Origin: an uncultured Bacilli bacterium | GTDB lineage: Bacteria; Bacillota_I; Bacilli_A; RF39; UBA660 | DNA length: 64,000 bases | Reading direction: 5' to 3' | Assembly (NCBI GenBank): GCA_944350345.1 | Contig: CALVOP010000002.1 | Location: 577 to 64,576, forward strand | Part shown: one piece after another, positions 3,311 through 60,188 of the stretch | Numbering within the stretch: position 1 is the stretch's first letter | Layout of the letters: the number at the start of each line of letters is the position of its first letter | Made by a program: the position numbers and the translations under genes | Notes under the pieces: model-generated | What the model saw: only the letters and a program-made list of their open reading frames with translations | What the model was told of the DNA's origin: nothing | The model's database searches: none

Positions 3311-4546
3311 ATGAGTAAAATTGTTGATATAACTTCACGTGAGATTTTGGATTCTAGAGGTAATCCTACTGTTGAAACTAAAGTTTATACTGAAAAAGGT
3401 AATATTGGTGTTTTTAGTGTTCCAAGTGGTGCTAGTACCGGTACTAGAGAGGCTCTTGAACTTAGGGATAATGATGAGAGATATTTTGGTAAAGGGGTTT
3501 TAAAAGCTGTTAGTAATGTTGGTTTAATTAAAGAAAAACTTGTCGGTGTTGAAGTTAGTGAACAAAGAAAAATTGATGAAGTTATGATTGAACTTGATGG
3601 AACTCCTAATAAAAGTAATCTGGGTGCGAATGCTATTTTAAGCGTTAGTGTTGCTTGTTTAAAAGCTGCTGCATTAGATAGTGGTTTAGATGTTTATGAA
3701 TATTTAAATAAACGTGAAAAGAAACTTCCTTATGCTATGTATAATATTATTAATGGTGGTAAACATTCAAGTAATAATTTGGATATACAGGAGTTTATGA
3801 TTGTTCCTAAATTTAAAGAGTTTAAGGAAGGTTTAAGGGCTGCTGGTGAGATATTTAATCAGTTAAAGAGTTTGTTAATTAAACAAGGACTTAGTATTAA
3901 TGTTGGGGATGAAGGTGGTTTTGCTCCTGATTTAAAAAGTAATGAAGAAGCACTTAGTTTGATTATAAAAAGTATTAGTGAAGCAGGGTATATTCCAGGA
4001 GTTAATGTGTTTATTGCTTTAGATGTCGCTGCAAGTAGTTTGTATAATAAAAATAATGATACTTATAAGTTAGATAATAATAATTTGTCTAGAGAAGAAT
4101 TACTTGATTATTATGTGTCTTTGGTTAAAAGTTATCCAATTATTAGTATTGAAGACCCGTTTGATGAAGATGATTATGAAGGATTTAAAATGATTACTGA
4201 AGTTTTGGGTAAAAAAATCAGTATTGTAGGTGATGATTTATTTGTTACGAATAAAGAATTACTTAAAAAAGGTATTGATAATAAAATGTGTAATGCTATT
4301 TTGATAAAGTTAAATCAAGTTGGAACTTTTTATGAAACTTTAGAAACTATTGTTCTCGCTAAACAACATAATTATACAACTATTATTAGTCATAGAAGTG
4401 GGGAAACTCTTGACACATTTATAGCAGACTTGGCTGTTTCATTAAATATTCCTTTTATTAAAACTGGGTCTGTTACTCGTGGAGAAAGGGTTTGTAAGTA
4501 TAATAGGCTTATGGAAATTGAAGAGGAATTAAGTAAGAATGAATAA
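3311..4546 (+). CDS. eno: Enolase (phosphopyruvate hydratase)
   Basis: The N-terminus MSKIVDITSREILDSRGNPTVETKVYTEKG... is a classic full-length enolase signature. Confidence 0.97.
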   Translation: MSKIVDITSREILDSRGNPTVETKVYTEKGNIGVFSVPSGASTGTREALELRDNDERYFGKGVLKAVSNVGLIKEKLVGVEVSEQRKIDEVMIELDGTPNKSNLGANAILSVSVACLKAAALDSGLDVYEYLNKREKKLPYAMYNIINGGKHSSNNLDIQEFMIVPKFKEFKEGLRAAGEIFNQLKSLLIKQGLSINVGDEGGFAPDLKSNEEALSLIIKSISEAGYIPGVNVFIALDVAASSLYNKNNDTYKLDNNNLSREELLDYYVSLVKSYPIISIEDPFDEDDYEGFKMITEVLGKKISIVGDDLFVTNKELLKKGIDNKMCNAILIKLNQVGTFYETLETIVLAKQHNYTTIISHRSGETLDTFIADLAVSLNIPFIKTGSVTRGERVCKYNRLMEIEEELSKNE

Positions 4547-4988
4547 TGTGATTTATATTGATATTAAAGATTATGAAAGTGCTTTTAATGAGTTTAATGA
4601 TAAATATATTTCAGATAGTTTGTTTAATTATATAACTACCGAATATGCTAAAAGTAAAAATGTTATTATTAAAATAACTGGTGTTAAAGAAGGTAAACAG
4701 GAAAAATTGTATGAAGCAATTAGATATACTTTTAAAGAAAAATATAAAAATTATATTAAATTAGATAAATTTGATGATTGGTATAGATTTTTATTACTTA
4801 TTTTGGGTGTTTTATTTGTGACTTTGAATCAGATTTTTGAAATTTATTTTTTAAAAGAAATTATGTTAGTTGCTGCATGGGTTGTAATATGGGAAACTGT
4901 TTATGATTTTCTGTTTAAAGGTAGTGGTAGAAAAATTAAAAGTAAAATGTATAAAAGTTTAATTAATGCTATAGTTGAATTTGATTAA
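4539..4988 (+). CDS. Hypothetical small membrane protein (two C-terminal TM helices). Its start overlaps the eno stop (ATGAATAA), so it is probably co-transcribed.
   Basis: 149 aa ORF with AT-rich codon usage consistent with the host. It has a hydrophobic C-terminal half. No recognisable family. Confidence 0.5.
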   Translation: MNNVIYIDIKDYESAFNEFNDKYISDSLFNYITTEYAKSKNVIIKITGVKEGKQEKLYEAIRYTFKEKYKNYIKLDKFDDWYRFLLLILGVLFVTLNQIFEIYFLKEIMLVAAWVVIWETVYDFLFKGSGRKIKSKMYKSLINAIVEFD

Positions 4989-5086
4989 AGTTTATGATTA
5001 TTAATAAAAGTGTTTCATAAAAAAATAGAGAATAATAATATTAGAAGACAAGTTTAGACTTGTTTTTTATTATGTAGGAAAAGATT

Positions 5087-5419
5087 ATGAAAACTATTTT
5101 AGAAAAATATGAAAATAAAATATTTGAAGATATAAAACATATTGATGAGTTTGGTAATGAATATTGGTTAGCTAGAGAATTGCAAAATGTACTAGAATAT
5201 AAAAGATGGAATAAATTTTGTAATGTAATAAAACACGCTAAGAAAGCATGTGAGAATAGTAATTATAAAGTTTATGGACATTTTTCCCAGGTGGAAAAAA
5301 CATCAAAAATGCCTAATGGTGGAGTTAAAAATTTTGATAAATTTCATAATGCTGGATATAAGGTTTTATATAATGGTGAAACAGCAAATGATATTGCTAA
5401 AAGAAAGGTTTATAGATAA
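5087..5419 (+). CDS. DinD-like / Bro-N domain protein (DNA-damage-inducible protein D N-terminal domain only, short form)
   Basis: IKHIDEFGNEYWLARELQNVLEYKRWNKFCNVIKHAKKACENSNYKVYGHF aligns closely with the E. coli DinD N-terminus (IRHYGTEGQEFWSARELAPLLDYRDWRNFQKVLARATQACEASGHAASDHF). It is 110 aa against about 270 aa for DinD. Confidence 0.65.
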   Translation: MKTILEKYENKIFEDIKHIDEFGNEYWLARELQNVLEYKRWNKFCNVIKHAKKACENSNYKVYGHFSQVEKTSKMPNGGVKNFDKFHNAGYKVLYNGETANDIAKRKVYR

Positions 5420-5440
5420 ATTAAAATAAAAGGAGTTTAA

Positions 5441-6379
5441 ATGAAAAATGAAATAATATTATTTGAAAATCAAAATGTTAAGTTAGAAGTAAATATGAAA
5501 GATGAAACAGTGTGGCTAAATCAAGAACAAATGGTTAAATTGTTTGAAAGAGACCAATCGGTAATAGCTAGACATATTAGAAATATTTTTAAAGAAGGAG
5601 AACTAATTAAAAAAAGTAATATGCAAAAAATGCATATTGCAAACTCGGATAAGCCAGTAATATTTTATAATTTAGATGTAATCATAAGTGTTGGTTATAG
5701 AGTAAAATCTAAAAATGGCATTATTTTTAGAAAATGGGCTAATAAAGTCTTAAAAGATTATTTAATTAAGGGTTATGCTGTTAATTATAAAAGATTAGAG
5801 TATCTTGAAAAAACGATTAAATTAATTGATATTGCAGGAAGAATTAGTGAAGATTTAAAGGGGAGTGAAGCTAAAGAAATTATTAAAGTTATTAATAATT
5901 ATTCAAATGCTTTTAATATGCTTGATGATTATGATTATAAAAGAATTATTAAGCCTAGTGGTAGAAAAGATAATAAAAAAATAACATATGATGAATGCTT
6001 AAATGTTATAAAAAGTTTGAAATATAAAATTAAAAGTAATTTATTTGCGCTTGAAAGGGAAAATGGATTGAACTCTATTATAAGGAATATTTATCAAAGT
6101 TTTGATGGAAAAGACTTGTATGCTTCTATAGAAGAAAAAGCTGCTAACTTTTTATATTTAATTACTAAAAATCATGTGTTTATTGATGGAAATAAGAGAA
6201 TTGCAGCAACTTTATTTATATATTTTTTAGAGTTTTATAATATTTTGTATGATGAAAGTGGACAAGTTATTGATAATAATACTTTAGTGGCTCTTACGTT
6301 ATTGATTGCTCAGTCTGATCCTAGGGAAAAAGAAGTTTTAATTGATTTAATAATGAATTTTTTAGTGAAAAATTTTTGA
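5441..6379 (+). CDS. RhuM-family protein with C-terminal Fic/Doc domain
   Basis: The N-terminus (MKNEIILFENQNVKLEVNMKDETVWLNQEQMVKLFERDQSVIARHIRNIFKEGEL) matches the Virulence_RhuM family. The C-terminus has HVFIDGNKRIAATL, which is a Doc-type Fic motif (HxFx[DN]GNKR). Confidence 0.8.
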   Translation: MKNEIILFENQNVKLEVNMKDETVWLNQEQMVKLFERDQSVIARHIRNIFKEGELIKKSNMQKMHIANSDKPVIFYNLDVIISVGYRVKSKNGIIFRKWANKVLKDYLIKGYAVNYKRLEYLEKTIKLIDIAGRISEDLKGSEAKEIIKVINNYSNAFNMLDDYDYKRIIKPSGRKDNKKITYDECLNVIKSLKYKIKSNLFALERENGLNSIIRNIYQSFDGKDLYASIEEKAANFLYLITKNHVFIDGNKRIAATLFIYFLEFYNILYDESGQVIDNNTLVALTLLIAQSDPREKEVLIDLIMNFLVKNF

Positions 6380-6458
6380 TGTCAAATAGTTTAAATATAA
6401 AATATTTGTGTTTTTAATAGTTTTATAGTATAATTAGTGTATGAATTGGAGGGGTTTT

Positions 6459-6548
6459 ATGTATATTTTAGTTATAATTATTGGTTTCTTTATGTTTATT
6501 GATTGTATTAGATCAGGATTTGGATATAAAGGCAAGAAAAGAAGATAA
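6459..6548 (+). CDS. Possible 29-aa membrane mini-protein (MYILVIIIGFFMFIDCIRSGFGYKGKKRR) upstream of secG
   Basis: A strong RBS (TGGAGGGG) lies 8 nt upstream of the ATG. It has a hydrophobic helix and a basic tail. It is too short for the ORF track. Confidence 0.3.
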   Translation: MYILVIIIGFFMFIDCIRSGFGYKGKKRR

Positions 6549-6568
6549 AAGAAAAGGAATGTGAAATC

Positions 6569-6781
6569 GTGGAAGTTTTATTAATTATTATATCAATTTT
6601 ATTAATAGCTATTGTACTTTTACAAAGTAATAAAGCTAGTGAAGCAGGACAAATTATTACTGGTGGTAATACAATACTTATGGGTAATATGAAAGAAAGA
6701 GGTAGTGAAAAATTTATAACTAGACTTACTTATACTTTAGGTTTTCTATTTATAATTGTTTCATTAATCTTATCTATATAA
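6569..6781 (+). CDS. secG: Preprotein translocase subunit SecG (GTG start)
   Basis: 70 aa with two TM helices and a Gly-rich loop (QSNKASEAGQIITGGN). The eno-secG neighbourhood is conserved in Firmicutes. A terminator follows at 6782-6804. Confidence 0.8.
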   Translation: MEVLLIIISILLIAIVLLQSNKASEAGQIITGGNTILMGNMKERGSEKFITRLTYTLGFLFIIVSLILSI

Positions 6782-6807
6782 AGAAAGCAAATGCTTTCTT
6801 TTTTAGG

Positions 6808-7833
6808 ATGTTTATGAAAGATATATTTGGTTATACTTTGGAAGAATTAGAAGTTTTTTTAGTTGAAATGGGATTTAAAAAATATAATGCATCTCAGGTT
6901 TTTGACTGGATTTATAAAAAGAATATTTTTGATTTTTCTCTTATGAGTAATATTAGTAAAAGTTTGAAATGTTTTTTAAATGATAATTTTTGTGCTAATT
7001 TATTAAAGGTTTCTAAAGTCGTTAGAGATGAAAAAAGTAGTAAATATTTGTTAGAACTTAGCGACGAAAATAAAATTGAATGTGTTCTTTTAAAACATGA
7101 TTATGGTAATTCTTTGTGTGTTAGTTCTCAAGTTGGTTGTAATATGGGTTGTGCTTTTTGTGAAAGTGGTAGGTTAAAAAAAGTAAGAGATTTGTCTTTA
7201 GGTGAAATGGTTCTTCAAATTGTTACAGTTCTAGTGGAAGAATGTATTAGGATTGATAGTGTTGTTGTAATGGGAATAGGTGAACCTTTTGATAATTTTG
7301 ATGTTTTAAAAAGATTTATTAGTGTTATTACTTGTCCTTTTGGACTAGAAATAGGTCAAAGACATATTACTGTATCTACTTGTGGACTTGTTCCTAAGAT
7401 TAAAGAATTTGCTTCTTTAAATACTCAGGTTAATTTAGCTATTAGTCTTCACGCGGGTAGTGATGAAGTTAGAAATAAACTTATGAATATTAATCGTGTT
7501 TATCCTATTAAAGATGTGTTTGATGCATTAGATTTTTATATTTTTAAAACTAATAGAAGAGTAACTATTGAATATATTTTAATTGATGGCATTAATGATA
7601 GTGAAAAGGATGCATTAGATTTAGTGTCTTTAGTTAAAGGTAAACTTATGTATGTTAATTTGATACCTTATAATGAAACTAGTAATTTTACATTTAAAAG
7701 AAGTAATGAGTTTAAAATAAATAAGTTTTATGATATACTTAAGAAGAATGGTATAAATGTGATAATAAGAAAGAATATTGCAGGTGGTATTAATGCTGCT
7801 TGTGGACAACTTAGAGCAAAGGAGAGTGCATAA
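6808..7833 (+). CDS. rlmN: 23S rRNA (adenine2503-C2)-methyltransferase RlmN (radical SAM)
   Basis: It carries the CNMGCAFCESG radical-SAM cluster motif and has RlmN length and architecture. It belongs to the conserved rlmN-stp-prkC-rsgA-rpe cluster. Confidence 0.9.
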   Translation: MFMKDIFGYTLEELEVFLVEMGFKKYNASQVFDWIYKKNIFDFSLMSNISKSLKCFLNDNFCANLLKVSKVVRDEKSSKYLLELSDENKIECVLLKHDYGNSLCVSSQVGCNMGCAFCESGRLKKVRDLSLGEMVLQIVTVLVEECIRIDSVVVMGIGEPFDNFDVLKRFISVITCPFGLEIGQRHITVSTCGLVPKIKEFASLNTQVNLAISLHAGSDEVRNKLMNINRVYPIKDVFDALDFYIFKTNRRVTIEYILIDGINDSEKDALDLVSLVKGKLMYVNLIPYNETSNFTFKRSNEFKINKFYDILKKNGINVIIRKNIAGGINAACGQLRAKESA

Positions 7834-7835
7834 AA

Positions 7836-8597
7836 GTGATATTTCATTATCAAACTGATGCAGGTAAAGTTAGAAGTCACAATGAGGATAGTGTGACTAT
7901 TGTTAGTAATAAAAGTGGAGAATATTTATTAGTTGTAGCTGATGGTATGGGAGGACACCGTGCAGGTGAAATTGCTTCTAGTATGGCTGTTACAGAATTG
8001 GGTAGTAGATTTCAAAAACTAGGCAGTATCGGAAATAAGATAGATGCAGTTAACTGGTTAAAAGAGATAATAGAAGAGATTAATTTGAATATTATTAAAT
8101 ATGCCAATGAACACGTTGATTCTACTGGGCTTGGCACTACTTGTGTCGCTGCTGTTTTGACTAATGATTATTTAATTTTTGCTAATGTTGGGGACTCAAG
8201 TGGTTTTGTTAAGAAAGATGGTAAATTATATAAAGTTACTAAAGATCATACTTTAGTTAATATATTAGTTGAGACTGGTGAACTTAGACCTGAAGAGGCA
8301 GAACACCATCCTCAGAAAAACGTACTTATGAGAGCTCTTGGAGCGAGTGAAAAGGTTGACGTTGATATATTTGCAGTGGAAGACCCGGTTGATGAGATTA
8401 TATTGTGTAGTGATGGACTTACTAATATGTTAACGGTTGAACAGATTGAGAAAGTGTTAAATGAAGATGACTTATCAATAGAGGAAAAAGTGAATAAATT
8501 AATTAATAAAAGTAATATGAGGGGCGGCAATGATAACATTAGTGTAGCTTATTTAATTAAGAAGAGTGGTGATACAGTTGATAGTAAAGGGTTCTAA
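7836..8597 (+). CDS. stp: PP2C-family Ser/Thr protein phosphatase (Stp/PrpC), GTG start
   Basis: VVADGMGGHRAGEIAS, a PP2C metal-binding motif. Its position is immediately upstream of the PASTA kinase. Confidence 0.9.
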   Translation: MIFHYQTDAGKVRSHNEDSVTIVSNKSGEYLLVVADGMGGHRAGEIASSMAVTELGSRFQKLGSIGNKIDAVNWLKEIIEEINLNIIKYANEHVDSTGLGTTCVAAVLTNDYLIFANVGDSSGFVKKDGKLYKVTKDHTLVNILVETGELRPEEAEHHPQKNVLMRALGASEKVDVDIFAVEDPVDEIILCSDGLTNMLTVEQIEKVLNEDDLSIEEKVNKLINKSNMRGGNDNISVAYLIKKSGDTVDSKGF

Positions 8598-10362
8598 AAT
8601 TAATGATAGATATCAAATTATTAAGACTTTAGGTGAAGGTGGAATGGCCAATGTTTATTTGGCTTATGATACTATTTTGGATAGAAAAGTCGCCGTTAAA
8701 GTTTTAAGGGGTGACCTTGCAAATGATGAAAAGTTTGTTAGGCGTTTTCAACGTGAAGCTTTATCTGCTTCTAGTTTATCTCATCCTAACATCGTTGAAA
8801 TGTATGATGTTGGTGAAGATGATGGACAGTATTATATTGTGATGGAATATGTTGAAGGTATAACTTTAAAGCAACTTCTTAAGAAACGTGGTAGTCTTAC
8901 TATAACTGAAGTCATGGATATTATGAGTCAGTTAACTGATGGTATGGCTCATGCTCATGATAGTTTTATTGTTCATAGAGATATAAAACCTCAAAACATA
9001 ATGATACTTGAAAACGGCGTCATTAAGATAACTGATTTTGGTATAGCTATGGCACTTAATTCTACTCAACTTACTCAAACTAATAGTGTAATGGGTAGTG
9101 TTCATTACTTACCACCAGAGCAAGCAAATGGTAAGGGTTCAACTATTAAAAGTGATATTTATTCTATGGGAATACTTATGTATGAACTTTTAACAGGTGG
9201 TGTTCCTTACAAAGGTGATAATGCTGTTGAAATTGCACTTAAACATTTAAAAGAACCTCTTCCTTCTATTAGAAAAGTTTTACCCGAGTTACCTCAATCA
9301 GTTGAAAATATCATTTTGAAAAGTACTGCTAAAAATCCACAAAATAGATATAAAGATGCTCGCGCTATGCATGAAGATATTGTAACTGCTTTGACTGATG
9401 AACGTGCGAATGAAAAAAGGTATGTTTATCCTTTCCCTGAAAATGATATTGAAAATACTAAGGTGTTAGATAATACAATTAAAGAAGTTAAAGAAAAGGA
9501 TAAAAAAGAAAAGGAAAATGAAAAGAAAAAGCTAGATTTTGAAATGAGAGAGGAAAATAGGAAACAAAATAAGATTTTAATTATTCTTGCATCTATTTTT
9601 GCAGGACTTGTAGTTATAACTGCATCCGTTGTAGTATTGCTTCCTAAACTTATGACAAAAGATAATATTGAAATACCTGACACTGTTATTGGGTTAAGTG
9701 AAAATGATGCGTATAATGACTTAGTTAAGTTAGGTTTTAATGTAGAAGTTAGTGATACTAAGGTGTCTAGTGATGATATTGAAGAAGGCCACGTAGTAAG
9801 AACTAGTCCTGAAGTGGGTAAAATAGTTAAAGAAGGTAGCACAGTTAAGTTGTTCTTATCTAGTGGTGAAGGTACTTTTGAGATTCCTGCTAGTTATATA
9901 GGTAGGAATTATATAGAAGTTAAAACTTTACTTGAAACAAATGAAGCTAATGTTATAGTAGAAACTATTAAAGTTAGTGAAGACGATGATTATGAAGCTG
10001 ATACTGTTATAGATATATCTCCTAAAGTTGGAGAAAAAGTTAAAAAGGGTTCAACTGTTACAATATATATTCCTGAAGTTGAAAAGAAATATCCTGACTT
10101 TGTTAAAGAAAATTATACAGTTGATAAAGTAAAAGATTTTTGTGAAGAAAATAATATTAATTTGGTAATTAAATATGAAGAAACTGACGAATATGTAGAA
10201 GGAACAATTCTTTATCAGAGTAGACCTGCTGAATCTGTAGTAGTAGAAGGAATTACTTTAAATATTACAGTTTCAACTAAACCAGAAATAGAAGAACCAA
10301 TTATAGATGAAGAAGGAAATTTAGATATTAATCCAGGGGAAAATGATGAAACAACAGAATAA
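8566..10362 (+). CDS. prkC: Ser/Thr protein kinase with three extracellular PASTA repeats (PrkC/PknB). The true start is probably TTG at 8578 (MIVKGSKINDRYQI...)
   Basis: Kinase motifs GEGGMANVYLA, HRDIKPQN and DFGIA are present. There is one TM segment, followed by three PASTA-like repeats. It overlaps the stp 3' end. Confidence 0.9.
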   Translation: MVIQLIVKGSKINDRYQIIKTLGEGGMANVYLAYDTILDRKVAVKVLRGDLANDEKFVRRFQREALSASSLSHPNIVEMYDVGEDDGQYYIVMEYVEGITLKQLLKKRGSLTITEVMDIMSQLTDGMAHAHDSFIVHRDIKPQNIMILENGVIKITDFGIAMALNSTQLTQTNSVMGSVHYLPPEQANGKGSTIKSDIYSMGILMYELLTGGVPYKGDNAVEIALKHLKEPLPSIRKVLPELPQSVENIILKSTAKNPQNRYKDARAMHEDIVTALTDERANEKRYVYPFPENDIENTKVLDNTIKEVKEKDKKEKENEKKKLDFEMREENRKQNKILIILASIFAGLVVITASVVVLLPKLMTKDNIEIPDTVIGLSENDAYNDLVKLGFNVEVSDTKVSSDDIEEGHVVRTSPEVGKIVKEGSTVKLFLSSGEGTFEIPASYIGRNYIEVKTLLETNEANVIVETIKVSEDDDYEADTVIDISPKVGEKVKKGSTVTIYIPEVEKKYPDFVKENYTVDKVKDFCEENNINLVIKYEETDEYVEGTILYQSRPAESVVVEGITLNITVSTKPEIEEPIIDEEGNLDINPGENDETTE

Positions 10363-11185
10363 TATAAAAGAAGGTAAGATTGTTAAAATAAATAAAGATT
10401 TGTACACTGTTCTATGTGATGAACGTGTACTTTCTTGTTATGTTAGGGGAAAACTTAAAGAGGATAAATTGACTGTTGGTGATAATGTTTTAGTCGATGT
10501 AAATAGTTTGACTATTGAAAAACAGTTGCCTAGAAAAAATACTCTTATTAGGCCTCTTGTGTCTAATATTGACTTACTTTTTATTGTTGTTAGTACTGAA
10601 GTTCCTGTTTTTAGTGAGTATTTGCTCGATAAGATGCTTTCTCTTTCTATTTATAATAAAATTGAGCCTATTATTATTGTTACAAAACTTGATAAGATCG
10701 ATGGTAATAGTAAAAGAAAAATATTTAAAACGTTAAAGTATTATAAGAAGTATTTTAAGGTTTATAAGAATAGTCAAATACGTAAAATTGTTAGAGAAAT
10801 TAAAGGTAAAACTATTGCTTTATGCGGTCAAACTGGTGCTGGAAAAAGTACTTTGTTAAATAAAATTGATAAAAATTTGAAACTTAATACTGATGAGGTT
10901 AGTTATTCTTTGGGTCGTGGTAAGCATACCACTAGGCTTGTTGAACTTATGAAGGTAAAGGGTGGTTTTATAGCTGATACTCCTGGCTTTAGTTCTCTTG
11001 ATTTGAATATAGATAAAGATGAGTTAAAATATACTTTTCCTGACTTTTGTTATGAGTGTAAGTATAAAAGTTGCAATCATGTGAGTGAAAATGGCTGTGA
11101 GGTTATAAAGGCAGTTAAAAATGGTAAGATACTTAAAAACAGATATGAAAACTATTTAAAATTGTTAAAGGAGGTTAGAAAATGA
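10343..11185 (+). CDS. rsgA: Ribosome small-subunit biogenesis GTPase RsgA
   Basis: G-motifs (GQTGAGKSTLLN, DTPGF) and a C-terminal zinc-finger cysteine cluster (CYECKYKSCNHVSENGC). Confidence 0.9.
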   Translation: MMKQQNNIKEGKIVKINKDLYTVLCDERVLSCYVRGKLKEDKLTVGDNVLVDVNSLTIEKQLPRKNTLIRPLVSNIDLLFIVVSTEVPVFSEYLLDKMLSLSIYNKIEPIIIVTKLDKIDGNSKRKIFKTLKYYKKYFKVYKNSQIRKIVREIKGKTIALCGQTGAGKSTLLNKIDKNLKLNTDEVSYSLGRGKHTTRLVELMKVKGGFIADTPGFSSLDLNIDKDELKYTFPDFCYECKYKSCNHVSENGCEVIKAVKNGKILKNRYENYLKLLKEVRK

Positions 11186-11820
11186 AGGTTAGTGTTTCTT
11201 TTTTGTCTTCTGTGTTAAAACCTAATTTGATTATTGATAGGATTAATAACACAACTGCTGATTTTGTTCATGTTGATGTGATGGATGGTAAGTTTGTTGA
11301 TAATAAAACTTATTCTATTGGAGAAGTTCTGAAATTAAGTAATTGTATGAAAAAACCAATGGATGTGCACTTAATGGTTAATAATCCTAAAAAATATATT
11401 GAAAAACTTGCTTTGTTAAATGTTGAGTATATTACTTTTCATTATGAAAGTGTTAAAAATATTGAAGATGTTATTGATTTAATTCATAATTGTGGCTTAA
11501 AAGCAGGAATTAGTATTAAGCCTTCTACAAATGCAAGTGAAATTATTAATTATTTAGATAAACTTGATTTGGTTTTGGTTATGAGTGTTGAACCTGGTAG
11601 AAGTGGTCAATCTTTTATGAATAGTGTTCTTTATAAGATTGAGTCTTTGAAAAAAGTTATTGATGAAAAGGGTTATAAAACTATTATTTCTGTAGATGGT
11701 GGTATTAATGAAGAAACTGCAAGGCTTGTTAAAGATAAAGGTGCAGATATGGTTGTGAGTGCTTCATTTTTGCATGATGGTGATATGATTAGTAAAGTTA
11801 ATTTGTTAAAAGAAATTTGA
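11182..11820 (+). CDS. rpe: Ribulose-phosphate 3-epimerase
   Basis: 212 aa. The VDVMDGKFV and MSVEPGRSGQSF motifs are typical of Rpe. Confidence 0.9.
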   Translation: MKVSVSFLSSVLKPNLIIDRINNTTADFVHVDVMDGKFVDNKTYSIGEVLKLSNCMKKPMDVHLMVNNPKKYIEKLALLNVEYITFHYESVKNIEDVIDLIHNCGLKAGISIKPSTNASEIINYLDKLDLVLVMSVEPGRSGQSFMNSVLYKIESLKKVIDEKGYKTIISVDGGINEETARLVKDKGADMVVSASFLHDGDMISKVNLLKEI

Positions 11821-56789: not shown

Positions 56790-57263
56790 ATGGAAAATAT
56801 TATAAGAAATGATAGGTATATATTAGATAAAAAAATATTAATTTTTAAAGAAAAGTATATGAAATTTAAAAAACTTAATATTGTTGATGAAATATCTTTG
56901 AGAGAGTGTATATGTGATGTTTTATCTTGGATAGAAATGTGTGTTAAAACTACAAAAGATATGAGTGTAGAAGAAAAAAGGAAAATTAGTGCAATTAGAT
57001 ATGCGAATAATTATAAAAAACACGGTATTAAATTATATAATTTTAATAAAAATGTGTATGGATTATATCCATCAGAAAAATTAGTCCCAAGACCAAATTT
57101 GTGTCCTTCTGATTTTAATATATATTGGAATTTTCTATCTTTTTTAAAAAAATCTGAAAAAACACAATATAATAATTATAGAACTTTTTTAGAAAATAAA
57201 AATATATATGATACAATAATTGACATTTATGAAATTATACAAAAATATTATAAACTAACTTAA
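56790..57263 (+). CDS. Hypothetical protein (157 aa), followed by a terminator at 57269-57290
   Basis: ORF with no known domain. A terminator hairpin AGGAGCAATGCTCCT followed by T7 comes immediately after. Confidence 0.4.
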   Translation: MENIIRNDRYILDKKILIFKEKYMKFKKLNIVDEISLRECICDVLSWIEMCVKTTKDMSVEEKRKISAIRYANNYKKHGIKLYNFNKNVYGLYPSEKLVPRPNLCPSDFNIYWNFLSFLKKSEKTQYNNYRTFLENKNIYDTIIDIYEIIQKYYKLT

Positions 57264-57571
57264 TGTAGGAGCAATGCTCCTTTTTTTGATGAGTAAATAT
57301 CTTTTTTTACTAAACCCAACCCCCAAACTTAATAAAATTGATTTTAAAGGTAGTTCCTGTTAGATTTGATTTGATTAATATATTTATATTAATTCATTAT
57401 AAACTTAACAGAAAACAACCTTAATTTGCTTTAAAATGGGTTGTTTATAATTGAATTATAATTGATAAAATTATTGGCTTTTACTATATAGCACTATTTA
57501 TATAATATATTGCTATTATTTGATTATTTCCTTTATTGCTCTACTAAATAGATAAGGAGAGTGATAAAGAT

Positions 57572-57745
57572 ATGGAATATTATTTCACAACAAAAGAAAT
57601 AAGTTTGTTATTAAAAACGCCAATTCAATTCATTAGAAAAATGATAAGAGAAAAAAGAATTATTGCTTATAAGGTAGGAAGACAATATATTGTTAAGGAA
57701 CAAGATTTAAATAATTATCTTGATAGTGTGAAATATGAAAGATAA
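57572..57745 (+). CDS. Excisionase/HTH_17-type small DNA-binding protein (57 aa): MEYYFTTKEISLLLKTPIQFIRKMIREKRIIAYKVGRQYIVKEQDLNNYLDSVKYER
   Basis: AAGGAGAGTGA RBS. It matches the Xis/HTH_17 winged-helix pattern (T.KE.a.lL.v....i.r.i..g.i.a.kvGr.w.i...dL..yl). It is not in the ORF track and overlaps the next gene by 11 nt. Confidence 0.6.
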   Translation: MEYYFTTKEISLLLKTPIQFIRKMIREKRIIAYKVGRQYIVKEQDLNNYLDSVKYER

Positions 57746-58076
57746 AGATATTTTAAAAATGTTAGGTTTAAATGATAGAACTATTACTTTAACTGCTGAT
57801 GATGAATATTTACAAATAATGCTTGAAAAGAAAATAGATAACTACTTTAAAAAATTAGATGAAGAAAAAAAGAAACAAGAACAAATAGATTATTATAAAA
57901 ATCAATATGAAAAGTTCCAAAAGAAAAATGAGTTTGTTAAAAACTTTGATGATAAGTTTGTTTATGGTAAGTTAAGAGATAAACTTATTAAAGACGGTTT
58001 TGTATATCGTTGTCCTTTTTGTCTTGATGTATCAAGTCAATATGGAAGACCATTACAAAGTTATAACAAACATTAG
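57735..58076 (+). CDS. Hypothetical protein (113 aa) with a C-terminal CPFC motif, overlapping the Xis-like gene
   Basis: ORF in apparent operon with the HTH_17 gene, with a terminator at 58079-58112. Confidence 0.4.
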   Translation: MKDKDILKMLGLNDRTITLTADDEYLQIMLEKKIDNYFKKLDEEKKKQEQIDYYKNQYEKFQKKNEFVKNFDDKFVYGKLRDKLIKDGFVYRCPFCLDVSSQYGRPLQSYNKH

Positions 58077-58117
58077 AAAAGAGAATTAAGTTTAAAATGC
58101 TTAATTCTCTTATTTTT

Positions 58118-58354
58118 TTACTTATTTACAAGTTCACTGTATATTTTTAATTGTTCTACATTATGTTTTCTAAATTCATCTCTAAACTTTAATAATAATT
58201 TATTTTTATGTTCTTCTAAAAGTTTTGTATCTTTGTTTGATAATTTGTTTTCTTCTAACATTTGTTTTGTTATTAAAAGTTCTATCATAATATTATTTAA
58301 GTCTTTAGTTAAGATAAATCTAAAATTTTTCCACTCGTTAATCATTTTTACCAC
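58118..58354 (-). CDS. Hypothetical small helical protein (78 aa)
   Basis: ORF only. It has a weak resemblance to Spo0E-like helical hairpins, which is not supported further. Confidence 0.3.
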   Translation of the reverse strand: MVKMINEWKNFRFILTKDLNNIMIELLITKQMLEENKLSNKDTKLLEEHKNKLLLKFRDEFRKHNVEQLKIYSELVNK

Positions 58355-58443
58355 CTTTACTATAAATTTTTAATCAATTTTTGTTAGACTTAAACTATTG
58401 ATTTTCCCTTTATTCATCTAACTTTGCTTAATTTTGTATCACT

Positions 58444-58674
58444 TTAAGGCGCAGGGCATGGAGTTCCGTTACATCCGTATATCATTATTGGTCTAGTGTT
58501 ACATACTATGCAGTTAGTGCCTCCTCCAAGTGCTGGTCTGTCACAAGAATTTAAACAATTTTCAGGACATGCGTTTGATTGTAGAACGTTTATTACTTGT
58601 AATATCTCAGCTATGCAACTATTGCATGTATTGCAGTTATCTCTATTACAAGAACATTCATTATTGTTACACAT
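58444..58674 (-). CDS. Very cysteine-rich small protein (76 aa, 14 Cys; N/T/C-rich): MCNNNECSCNRDNCNTCNSCIAEILQVINVLQSNACPENCLNSCDRPALGGGTNCIVCNTRPIMIYGCNGTPCPAP
   Basis: The ATG at 58674 is preceded by AAGGGGTGG with about 7 nt spacing (the ORF track begins at GTG 58683). There are multiple CxxC/CxC spacings. The function is not recognisable. Confidence 0.5.
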   Translation of the reverse strand: MCNNNECSCNRDNCNTCNSCIAEILQVINVLQSNACPENCLNSCDRPALGGGTNCIVCNTRPIMIYGCNGTPCPAP

Positions 58675-58880
58675 ATAATCCACCCCTTCTTTTCTTACAA
58701 TAATAATTTATGTAATTCTTTTAATAGTGTTCGTATTCTTACCTATATTTGTGGTTTACATTTAAAAATGTTTTTTCGTGCAAAATGTATGAAATATATA
58801 CTTTTTTGTCATGTAAATTTATATTAGTTATAAGTTGATAATTTTGTTAAGTTATGTTATATTTATTGTAGGAGGAAAAT

Positions 58881-60188
58881 ATGAAAAAGATAAGTTTGTT
58901 TTTTGCAGTTTTTTTAACAGCATTTCTTTTCTTAGGAACTGTAAATGCAAAAACTGTAAACGTTGCTAGCACTGACGATTTGAGTGCTAAAATAGGGGAA
59001 GCGGAGGAAGGAGATACTTTAGTATTAGAAGATGGCACTTATACTGGTGATATAACTATTGATAAGGCATTAACTATTGAAGGAACTAGTAAAGAAGATA
59101 CTATTATAGTTGGTCAAATTACTGTTACTGATAACTTTGATATGAAAAATGTTACTGTTATAGATGAACATGTAAATGGTACTTATAAAAATGTGATAAC
59201 TATTACTGAACCAGAACTTGTAGTTAATTTCGACAATGTAAACGTTAATGTTAAAGATTATGTTGCTGATAAAGACTATAAAACTGGTGTTTCTGGTATA
59301 AGCGCTGATGCTGATGCAAACGGTACTAAATTAACTATTACTAATAGTAAAGTTAATGCTACTTATGGTATTTATGTAAAAAGTGAAAAAAATACTATTA
59401 AAATTGAATCATCTATAGTTTCTGGATGGGCAGCATTAGATATTACTACTAGTGAAGGCGTATTACAAAATAATAATAAAGTAACTGTTAAGAATAGTAC
59501 TTTATATGGTACTAGTTATGTTCCTAAAGATAGCTACAATAATTATGGTGTTGTAGTTATTGGAAGTCAGAAAGATTTAAGTTTAACTATAACTGATAGT
59601 ACTATTAAAAATAATATTGTTACTGAAAATAGAATTGATTTAATATATTTTGGTGATTATTATGAAGATAGTGAAACTTCTATTATTACATTAAATAATG
59701 TTAAATTAGAAAATAATGATACTAATGGTGAAAGTACTAAAGTTAATTTTGCAACAGAAGGAAATGCACTTGGTGGACAAATATTTATAATTGATGAAAA
59801 GACAAATTTAGATATGACTACAGATGCTGATAAGGTAGGGTCTACAGGTCATGTATTTAATCTATCATCAATTGATGGTGTTGCTTCAATGATCGTACCA
59901 GATAAGTTTGTTGTTACAGCTGATGCTTTAGAAGTTGGTACAGTAGAAGGTTATGAATTTAAAGGTTGGTATACTGATGCTGAATACAAAAATGAATTTT
60001 TAGCCGGTACTGAGATAACTGAAGATACTACAATATATGCATATTTTGTAGAAATAGTTGAAGATACAACACCTGAGGTTAATAATCCTCAAACAGGAGA
60101 TAACGTTTTAGTATTCTTCTTAGTAGGTCTTATTTCATTAATAGGCTTTGTTGGTGGAAGCGTATATTTCTTAAAACATCAAAATTAA
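58881..60188 (+). CDS. Secreted right-handed beta-helix-like surface protein with a C-terminal NPQTG sortase (class B-type) sorting signal
   Basis: The signal peptide is MKKISLFFAVFLTAFLFLGTVNA. It has many N.T/V.V...T periodic beta-helix-like repeats. The C-terminus is NPQTGDNVLVFFLVGLISLIGFVGGSVYFLKHQN (motif, TM, positive tail). A terminator follows at 60226-60250. Confidence 0.65.
   Translation: MKKISLFFAVFLTAFLFLGTVNAKTVNVASTDDLSAKIGEAEEGDTLVLEDGTYTGDITIDKALTIEGTSKEDTIIVGQITVTDNFDMKNVTVIDEHVNGTYKNVITITEPELVVNFDNVNVNVKDYVADKDYKTGVSGISADADANGTKLTITNSKVNATYGIYVKSEKNTIKIESSIVSGWAALDITTSEGVLQNNNKVTVKNSTLYGTSYVPKDSYNNYGVVVIGSQKDLSLTITDSTIKNNIVTENRIDLIYFGDYYEDSETSIITLNNVKLENNDTNGESTKVNFATEGNALGGQIFIIDEKTNLDMTTDADKVGSTGHVFNLSSIDGVASMIVPDKFVVTADALEVGTVEGYEFKGWYTDAEYKNEFLAGTEITEDTTIYAYFVEIVEDTTPEVNNPQTGDNVLVFFLVGLISLIGFVGGSVYFLKHQN

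Follow-up and report, generated by a model that had tools for sequence, protein, structure and literature searches.

The DNA analysed here is a 64,000-nucleotide stretch (the window, to which all positions refer) of contig CALVOP010000002.1 from an uncultured gut Bacilli bacterium (assembly GCA_944350345.1), and our subject is a gene of the CotY/CotZ spore-coat family (PF10612) that is cut in two by a 6.8-kb element encoding a large serine recombinase. An open reading frame (ORF) of 76 amino acids at 58444-58674, which the original prediction had singled out as a small cysteine-rich protein, is the 5' fragment of this split 151-amino-acid spore-coat/crust gene, and the 3' fragment lies at the far end of the element. 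The anatomy of the locus and the use of the same insertion site in other species can be read directly from the sequences, and they point to a probable developmental rearrangement in which the gene would be rebuilt during sporulation.

The split CotY/CotZ-family gene

The 76-amino-acid ORF exists and its translation is exactly as quoted, but it is encoded on the minus strand (58674-58444), the plus-strand frame over the same positions being riddled with stops, and it is a truncated gene fragment rather than a protein in its own right. It contains 13 cysteines (17.1%), not the 14 (about 18%) originally counted. The strong ribosome-binding site (RBS) that had been reported is present: AAGGGGTGG can be read at 58680-58688 on the minus strand, 5 nt upstream of the ATG, and appears as GGGTGG in other species. 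A 79-amino-acid variant in the ORF list starts at a GTG within this RBS, against which the ATG is the credible start. Instead of lying on the island, as had been supposed, the ORF straddles its edge. According to alignments with contigs that lack the element, codons 1-72 and the TG of codon 73 (58457-58674, minus strand) are host DNA, and the last 13 nt (58444-58456, minus strand; c cct gcg cct taa, encoding C-P-A-P-stop) are element DNA, with the stop codon at the start of an attP arm. The same alignments assign the third base of Trp73 through codon 151 and the stop codon to 51375-51612 (minus strand). This 3' segment appears in the ORF list as an 82-amino-acid ORF (51623-51375), the first three codons of which (M-I-W) are supplied by the element. 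The likeness in composition between the ORFs at 58674-58444 and 51623-51375, correctly perceived at the outset, is thus explained by their being halves of one gene. A sequence scan places a terminator-like hairpin downstream of the cotY/Z stop codon (51346-51368, minus strand).

When the halves are joined in silico, the resulting protein has 21 cysteines in 151 residues and matches the PF10612 profile (Spore-coat_CotZ) at 43.1 bits (cutoff 24; E 6e-11) over profile positions 6-109 of 159, across the junction; among the options first put forward, that of a cysteine-rich spore coat or exosporium protein therefore named the right family. The C-fragment passes the PF10612 cutoff by itself (29.7 bits, E 8e-7) and the 76-residue N-fragment alone has no Pfam match. 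The joined sequence is identical to the product of an intact gene (P0241) found on 22-23 contigs. Its homologues number 1,364, the best at 95-99% identity and with a 95% match spanning 100% of the query; the best 120 of the 1,364 are 137-159 amino acids long and carry PF10612 in all 120 cases, and full-length relatives are annotated as CotY/CotZ family spore coat protein. Intact homologues read IMIYGCNGTP/WSMPTTRT across the joint (slash). An in-frame ATGATAT common to both ORFs is excluded as the joint by these homologues and by the DNA alignment, the true core TG lying 27 nt downstream of it in the 5' fragment. The joined protein received no name in an NCBIfam search, and PDB sequence and fold searches with it returned nothing significant.

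These data bear on the notion, contained in the original prediction, of a stand-alone small cysteine-rich protein that might be metal-binding (metallothionein-like), the precursor of a ribosomally synthesised and post-translationally modified peptide (RiPP) or a toxin. The ORF does have start and stop codons and a strong RBS, and a 76-residue product could be translated from the cot promoter. Against this, its last four codons and stop are element DNA, all homologues are about 140-160 amino acids long, and the N-fragment by itself resembles no Pfam family. Moreover, in the AlphaFold2 (AF2) model the intact protein is a single compact domain, with a mean predicted local distance difference test (pLDDT) score of 75 and a predicted template modelling (pTM) score of 0.72, and residues 72/73 sit between strands at a pLDDT of about 86. 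A break within one confidently modelled domain makes it unlikely that the halves work as separate proteins. Since the ORF is a truncated 5' fragment made by the insertion, the readings as a metallothionein, RiPP or toxin lose their basis, and we hold a stand-alone protein to be extremely unlikely. Lack of conservation of the frame in related elements had been named as a ground for discarding the ORF; that test does not apply, as the frame is host DNA, and the frame is conserved in more than 1,300 homologues, within genes for about 140-160 amino acids. An exact-sequence look-up of the 76-residue product found no gene on record, though the sequence is present in the cluster table.

The insertion point is fixed by contigs in which the site is empty. 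In one of these (L001) the intact gene stands beside the same Flg_new and RimP genes as in the window, and the contig aligns to window positions 58794-58457 and then straight to 51614-51341, the two blocks overlapping by 2 bp, TG. Five further contigs (L097-L101) break at exactly 58457 and 51614; over 58794-58457 the six empty-site contigs are 95-98.5% identical to the window. Gene order in L097-L101 is that of the window on both sides, with InfB, YlxR, NusA, RimP and Flg_new on one and PedC-like, PTS_EIIB, HisKA and SpoIVA genes on the other. The insertion falls at the TG of the Trp codon in a conserved P-W-S-M-P motif, and the joint obtained by excision in silico is in frame and the same as in the naturally occurring intact allele. 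At least 8 contigs, which stem from independent samples and assemblers, carry the split allele, and over 6.5 kb (6,458 bp) one of them shows 100% identity with the window. An assembly or binning artefact that joined unrelated DNA would have had to generate the same junctions in all of these, and its probability is practically negligible.

The crossover cores are a TG at 58457-58458 (N-junction, attL) and a TG at 51613-51614 (C-junction, attR), both on the minus strand, the 2-bp overlap being seen in 6/6 empty-site contigs. The junction sequences are GGAACTCCATGCCCTGCGCC for attL, GATATGGTGGAGCATGCC for attR, GGAACTCCATGGAGCATGCC for attB and GATATGGTGCCCTGCGCC for attP. Just inside each core lies an attP arm, AAAGTGATA at 58437-58445 and TATCACTTT at 51626-51634 (minus strand); each is 11 nt from its core and the reverse complement of the other. 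The circular junction rebuilt from the element ends thus reads TATCACTTT-N11-TG-N11-AAAGTGATA, symmetric about the TG. This dyad symmetry, together with a 2-bp core and no long direct repeats, is as expected of the attP of a large serine recombinase; such sites are symmetric about the core, as a comparison with SPbeta illustrates (PMC5499854).

The element and its relatives

The intervening element (51615-58456) measures 6,842 bp between the TG cores, or 6,844 bp with one core, and has a G+C content of 21.9% against 28-29% in the flanks. Its DNA has no blastn match among 50,697 phage records, a PHROGs search of it finds no phage structural genes, and a PADLOC search of its cargo yields only a weak match of a helix-turn-helix (HTH) protein to mad1. 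The recombinase, of 516 amino acids, is encoded at 51641-53191 on the minus strand, its stop codon 6 nt from the attP arm and 26 nt from the core. All of its Pfam domains score above their cutoffs (PF00239, Resolvase, 72.8 bits; PF07508, Recombinase, 87.3; PF13408, Zn_ribbon_recom, 45.4), it matches the phrog_95 integrase at E 1e-101, and the catalytic R14/S16 of its YLRLSR motif are invariant across 16 relatives. The best NCBIfam matches are XisF, of the fdxN element in Anabaena heterocysts, and CcrB, of SCCmec; at 118 against a cutoff of 375 and 112 against one of 900, respectively, these fall so far under the equivalog cutoffs that the recombinase is not filed as either. XisF does share with the scheme proposed below that it rebuilds a gene in a terminally differentiated cell.

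Before the recombinase gene, a promoter scan finds a sigmaA-type promoter with an extended -10 (TAGAAA-17-TGgTATAAT; 53240-53268, minus strand). Its extended -10 block, TGGTATAAT (53248-53240), is conserved in the window element (W) and in the related elements L008 and L010, and recurs as TGATATAAT in L005. Directly upstream of the recombinase gene lies a micro-ORF of 33 amino acids (MVINYFNESGKSLQEMLDDLILVYYYDTIENNA; 53252-53353, minus strand), which matches no known family and is conserved in related elements: it is present in W, L005, L008, L009 and L010, that is, in all elements of the clade with at least 67% recombinase identity, with the consensus ..NYFNE.GK.LQE.L..LIL.YYYD. It is called as a 33-amino-acid gene in L102-L104, where it is invariant. 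The extended -10 promoter separates the micro-ORF from the recombinase gene; L009 is without that spacer and there the two genes abut.

At the opposite end, an ORF of 78 amino acids (58118-58354, minus strand) lies just inside the N-junction on the cot strand, about 105 nt from it in W as in L010 (91% identity) and L008 (42%). No terminator-like site was found between the stop of the cot fragment and this ORF, and the cot promoter could therefore drive it. Next to it, on the plus strand, are a 57-amino-acid excisionase-family HTH protein (57572-57745; TIGR01764 'excise', 45.2 bits against a cutoff of 28.8; PF12728, HTH_17, E 3e-10) and, overlapping the end of the HTH gene, a 113-amino-acid ORF (57735-58076) with no informative match and 83% identity in L010. 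The HTH protein occurs only in W and L010 (98% identical) and is frameshifted in L102, which is otherwise 99.5% identical. The remaining cargo, at 53650-57263 on the plus strand, consists of ORFs of 85, 310, 159, 259 and 157 amino acids, none with a Pfam match above cutoff; their sole PHROG match is that of the 157-amino-acid ORF, to a family without assigned function. L010 has counterparts of the 85-, 310- and 159-amino-acid ORFs and none of those of 157 and 259.

A scan for relatives of the recombinase, with one genome per GTDB species, found 80 loci. At four of these a cotY/Z gene is split, namely L008 (84% recombinase identity), L009 (71%), L010 (67%) and L024 (47%); the other 76, with recombinases at most 49% identical, have no split cotY/Z within 10 kb. 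Relatives at 81% and 67% identity likewise adjoin PF10612 fragments. Those on viral contigs reach 35% identity at most, and no cot fragments lie near them. In the six species with a split gene (the window, L005, L008, L009, L010 and L024) crossover took place at the same TG, in the Trp codon of P-W-S-M-P; the layout of the arms is the same, those of L024 being slightly offset, and both gene halves are intact ORFs in 6/6. The elements differ in size (2,378 bp in L009 and 8,113 bp in L005; 8,224, 6,191 and 4,990 bp in the L008/L010/L024 set) and their cargo is largely different. In L005 the recombinase adjoins the 5' fragment on the opposite strand, so that the element is inverted relative to the cot gene, an arrangement that can only have come from a separate integration event in which the attP core was flipped. 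The use of one codon in different species by elements of differing size and cargo, one of them flipped, hence argues for repeated independent integrations by a single integrase clade. Repeated independent integration in one gene is what has been termed the 'regulated gene integrity' criterion (PMC7192596).

The elements are also mobile. The cargo of W and L010 is syntenic, the HTH protein being 98% and the 85-amino-acid ORF 99% identical, whereas the recombinases are 67% and the host cot genes about 61% identical. Cargo so much more alike than the recombinases and host genes around it implies recent horizontal movement between species and exchange of modules between the elements. The smallest element, in L009 (about 450-2830), holds two small ORFs, of 93 and 101 amino acids, in addition to the micro-ORF and recombinase gene, which there take the promoter-proximal position that the 78-amino-acid ORF has elsewhere. 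By eye, the two small ORFs of L009 resemble a RelB/DinJ antitoxin and a YafQ/RelE toxin. The L005 element (about 3470-11584) carries FtsK/SpoIIIE-like and Flg_new genes, and such cargo suggests a conjugative or mobilisable element.

Recombinases 44-47% identical to that of the window, from similar gut metagenome-assembled genomes (MAGs), adjoin other genes. At L025-L028, L031, L039 and L042, recombinases of about 45% identity split collagen-like genes with BclA_C/C1q-like C-termini. In L028 (about 8450-11640) an N-fragment ending GETGPIGPT/HAR-stop and a C-fragment reading TGPIGPTGP flank an element of about 3.1 kb, the arms of which (ACTTTCACTT and AAGTGAAAGT) are analogous to those of the cotY/Z elements. 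At L012-L017, L019, L020, L022, L023, L034 and L037 the recombinase gene is followed by a truncated gene for a LolA-like lipoprotein (...TPSLNKSFKFQSDWPYNNSQ...), of 243 amino acids where intact homologues (PF27667/PF03548) have about 332. NCBIfam offered no name for these LolA-like fragments. B. subtilis YdcC is a LolA-like sporulation lipoprotein.

Putative sporulation signals at the target gene

The original prediction had recommended a search for sporulation-sigma promoters, and the search, judged by Bacillus subtilis consensus sequences, was rewarded upstream of the gene. A match to a sigmaK-type promoter, AC-N16-CATAAATTA, lies at 58704-58730 on the minus strand, its -10 element ending 29 nt before the ATG. 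The motif has 6 matches in the whole window on both strands (128 kb), and the cot promoter is the sole one within 51200-59000. A block of the form TAGGTA..CAC..(C/A)ATAAATTA..GGGTGG is found again in front of the gene in L005, L008, L009, L010 and L024. Its TAGGTA box, just upstream of the cot -35 region (58690-58760, minus strand), is conserved in 5/6 species and resembles the core (TRGGY) of the GerE binding consensus. In Bacillus, CotY and CotZ are late mother-cell proteins, and this knowledge of the family, together with the conserved sigmaK-type match, suggests that the target gene is expressed in the mother cell.

A second sigmaK-type match (ACAAAATAAAACACTTCGCATATTTTA) stands 38 nt upstream of a Pro/Tyr-rich ORF of 70 amino acids (...PYRPRPVPPRPYPPRPYPPFGPYMY; 48768-49018, plus strand), which is plausibly another small spore-coat protein. 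None of the other four matches in the window precedes an ORF.

Proposed excision in the mother cell and its alternatives

All serine-recombinase elements studied so far in such genes are excised in the mother cell, the chromosome of which is not inherited (PMC4191935, PMC5499854, PMC5595907, PMC5025042, PMC10747680). By analogy, we consider it probable that the cotY/Z-intervening element of the window is a new one of the skin/SPbeta/gin type, and that the mother cell excises it and so restores the gene. Established facts of the anatomy are the split gene with its insertion at the TG, the att sites, an intact recombinase and the recurrent choice of one site; the excision scenario is drawn from skin/sigK, SPbeta/spsM and gin/gerE. 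As in that class, the insertion lies within the coding sequence of a sporulation gene and precise excision would restore the frame.

In this scheme the element would stay integrated in vegetative cells and in the forespore, and the recombinase would be made constitutively from its conserved extended -10 sigmaA-type promoter. Expression of a small directionality factor in the mother cell, as this differentiates terminally, would switch the recombinase to attL x attR excision; the element would leave as a circle, the intact 151-amino-acid gene would be rebuilt under its sigmaK-type promoter and the coat protein would be made, while the forespore (germ-line) copy would keep the element. Candidates for the factor are, in descending order, the 33-amino-acid micro-ORF, the 78-amino-acid ORF, read through from the cot promoter, and the 57-amino-acid HTH protein. 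The micro-ORF heads the list as the sole accessory gene common to all five elements of the at least 67% clade, the minimal one included.

The sequences of the split alleles lend support to the view that the split gene is maintained. The joined coding sequence of the window differs from intact alleles by 6-8 nt and 0 amino acids, in flanks of 92.6-95% identity, and from that of L001 by 14 nt and 1 amino acid. Two further copies of the element, L102 and L103, each 99.5% identical to it, show frameshifting indels of 1-2 nt, which affect the ORF of 310 amino acids in both copies (by 1 nt) and the HTH gene in L102; there is also a 3-nt indel in the ORF of 259. Their recombinases have 1-2 amino acid changes, their micro-ORF and 3' cot fragment none, and the 5' cot fragment of L102 differs by 12 nt and 3 amino acids. 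The indels could reflect real decay of the cargo or homopolymer assembly errors.

Several observations weigh against developmental excision. The synonymous-only differences could predate the insertion, and the cargo indels, coming from short-read assemblies of AT-rich DNA, may be sequencing errors. In the window element, none of the candidate directionality factors has a sigmaE- or sigmaK-type motif in front of it: a strict sigmaE motif has zero matches in the element, and a loose one occurs at chance-like density and before none of the candidates. No accessory gene is common to all six elements, L024 being without the micro-ORF and the 78-amino-acid and HTH genes occurring in subsets. A pattern search of viral and metagenome contigs for a free attP gave only unrelated matches. 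Among these, the viral contig L093 shares no genes with the element, the metagenome contigs L094 and L095 share one unrelated promoter/operator-like palindrome (G+C content 42-44%), and L096, also from metagenomes, is an AT-rich non-coding piece without element genes. In L093-L095, which are unrelated contigs, the palindrome (e.g. L094 3851-3892) coincides in part with a TTGACA-N17-TATAAT promoter; L094 has, about 1.3 kb away from it, a recombinase with 30% identity to that of the window, and we treat the palindrome as an operator-like chance match. Intact alleles are, furthermore, much commoner than split ones in public data, so that the element is dispensable and could be a mere knock-out in its carriers. 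Finally, the host, a gut 'Bacilli bacterium' that has not been cultured, is represented by MAGs only, and its sporulation regulation has therefore had to be gauged from B. subtilis consensus sequences.

The main alternative is plain insertional inactivation, in which an ordinary mobile element would use a conserved site in cotY/Z as its attB, carriers would go without the protein, and excision would be rare and serve transfer. The dominance of intact alleles in public assemblies speaks for it, as do the lack of an excised form in contig searches and of a sporulation-type promoter within the element, the horizontal movement betrayed by element genes up to about 98-99% identical in W and L010 beside host cot genes of about 61%, and a report that CotY/Z-type proteins are not universally essential (Galperin preprint). 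It accounts poorly, on the other hand, for the same codon being hit in six species with the halves always intact ORFs, for a minimal 2.4-kb element that is devoid of transfer functions and has kept only a toxin-antitoxin-like pair beside the micro-ORF and recombinase gene, and for sister recombinases that split another spore-surface gene family. It would also set this element apart from all studied large serine recombinase elements in mother-cell sporulation genes, which are developmentally excised (PMC5595907, PMC4191935, PMC10747680). We regard simple inactivation as unlikely, though by no means negligible.

A reversible switch in growing cells is another conceivable outcome, akin to the active lysogeny at comK in Listeria, in which some of the cells would excise and re-integrate the element and the spore surface would become heterogeneous as a result. 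The yabG element of C. botulinum is excised at all time points, and heterogeneously (PMC10747680), and the promoter of the window recombinase looks constitutive. The target, however, has a sigmaK-type promoter, and the integrity of the gene would hence matter only late in the mother cell; we deem such a switch very unlikely.

Set against the known systems, mother-cell excision of the cotY/Z element would have close precedents. Targets described so far are sigK, spsM, spoVFB, spoVR, gerE and yabG, in cultured Bacillus, Geobacillus or Clostridium (PMC4191935, PMC5595907, PMC10747680). In SPbeta/spsM of B. subtilis (SprA, SprB) a large serine recombinase element also splits a late mother-cell spore-surface gene (PMC4191935), with crossover at a central dinucleotide in a symmetric attP and a constitutive sprA (PMC5499854), which the constitutive look of the window integrase promoter parallels. 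Its excision is triggered by a small separate factor, SprB, and such a factor would be expected for the window element, in which no SprB homologue was recognised. SPbeta differs in being a large active prophage with an AA core, as opposed to a 6.8-kb element with a TG core and neither phage genes nor similarity to phage DNA, and spsM specifies a polysaccharide-synthesis enzyme rather than a structural CotY/Z-family protein. By analogy, the window locus is especially like gin/gerE of Bacillus cereus ATCC 10987 (GirC, GirX), a non-prophage-like element with a serine recombinase that splits a very small late mother-cell gene (PMC5595907). Even so, gin has 28.6 kb, three recombinase genes, a 9-bp overlap and gerE as target (PMC5595907), compared with 6.8 kb (2.4-8.2 kb in relatives), one recombinase, a 2-bp core and cotY/Z. 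Excision of skin in the mother cell rebuilds sigK (PMC5025042); with skin (SpoIVCA in B. subtilis; CD1231 and CD1234 in C. difficile) the window element would share the character of a degenerate element kept mainly for its recombination module (PMC5025042), but sigK is a regulator, the rebuilding of which gates the whole late programme, whereas the target in the window, a structural coat protein, comes last in the cascade. Of the same class, too, are vfbin (spoVFB), vrin (spoVR) and yin (yabG), which likewise interrupt sporulation genes but are prophage-like and have other targets. As for the target itself, it resembles CotY/CotZ of the B. subtilis crust and ExsY/CotY of the B. cereus exosporium in passing PF10612, in its cysteine richness and in its sigmaK-type promoter match, but it comes from uncultured gut Bacilli, outside the Bacillaceae in which the family has been studied.

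A target of the cotY/cotZ family is not mentioned in the literature searched, including the supplementary data of PMC7192596; that search was not exhaustive, so a report may exist. What would be new, within a known class of elements, is the target, a structural coat/crust cotY/Z gene, together with the compact recombinase lineage: the locus adds such a gene, in uncultured gut Bacilli, with a recombinase clade aimed at one codon. A bolder extension, possible though doubtful, is that compact cassettes of the 33-amino-acid micro-ORF and a large serine recombinase, down to 2.4 kb, have colonised cotY/Z, BclA-like and LolA-like genes, all rejoined in the mother cell, that the 33-residue peptide is the smallest known directionality factor, and that the minimal elements would be timed by a captured sigmaK-type promoter. 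For annotation, the case of the 76-amino-acid ORF suggests that short 'orphan' cysteine-rich ORFs beside recombinase genes in MAGs be checked for split-gene halves before they are described as novel peptides. Should excision take place as proposed, these elements would also offer genome engineering a set of small serine integrases of natural specificity, whose att sites are defined and measure about 40-50 bp, along with a 33-amino-acid candidate for a directionality factor. If the BclA-like and LolA-like genes too are rejoined in the mother cell, the recombinase family would constitute a modular system aimed at sporulation genes, and rearrangements of such genes would be both commoner and more modular than the model organisms suggest.

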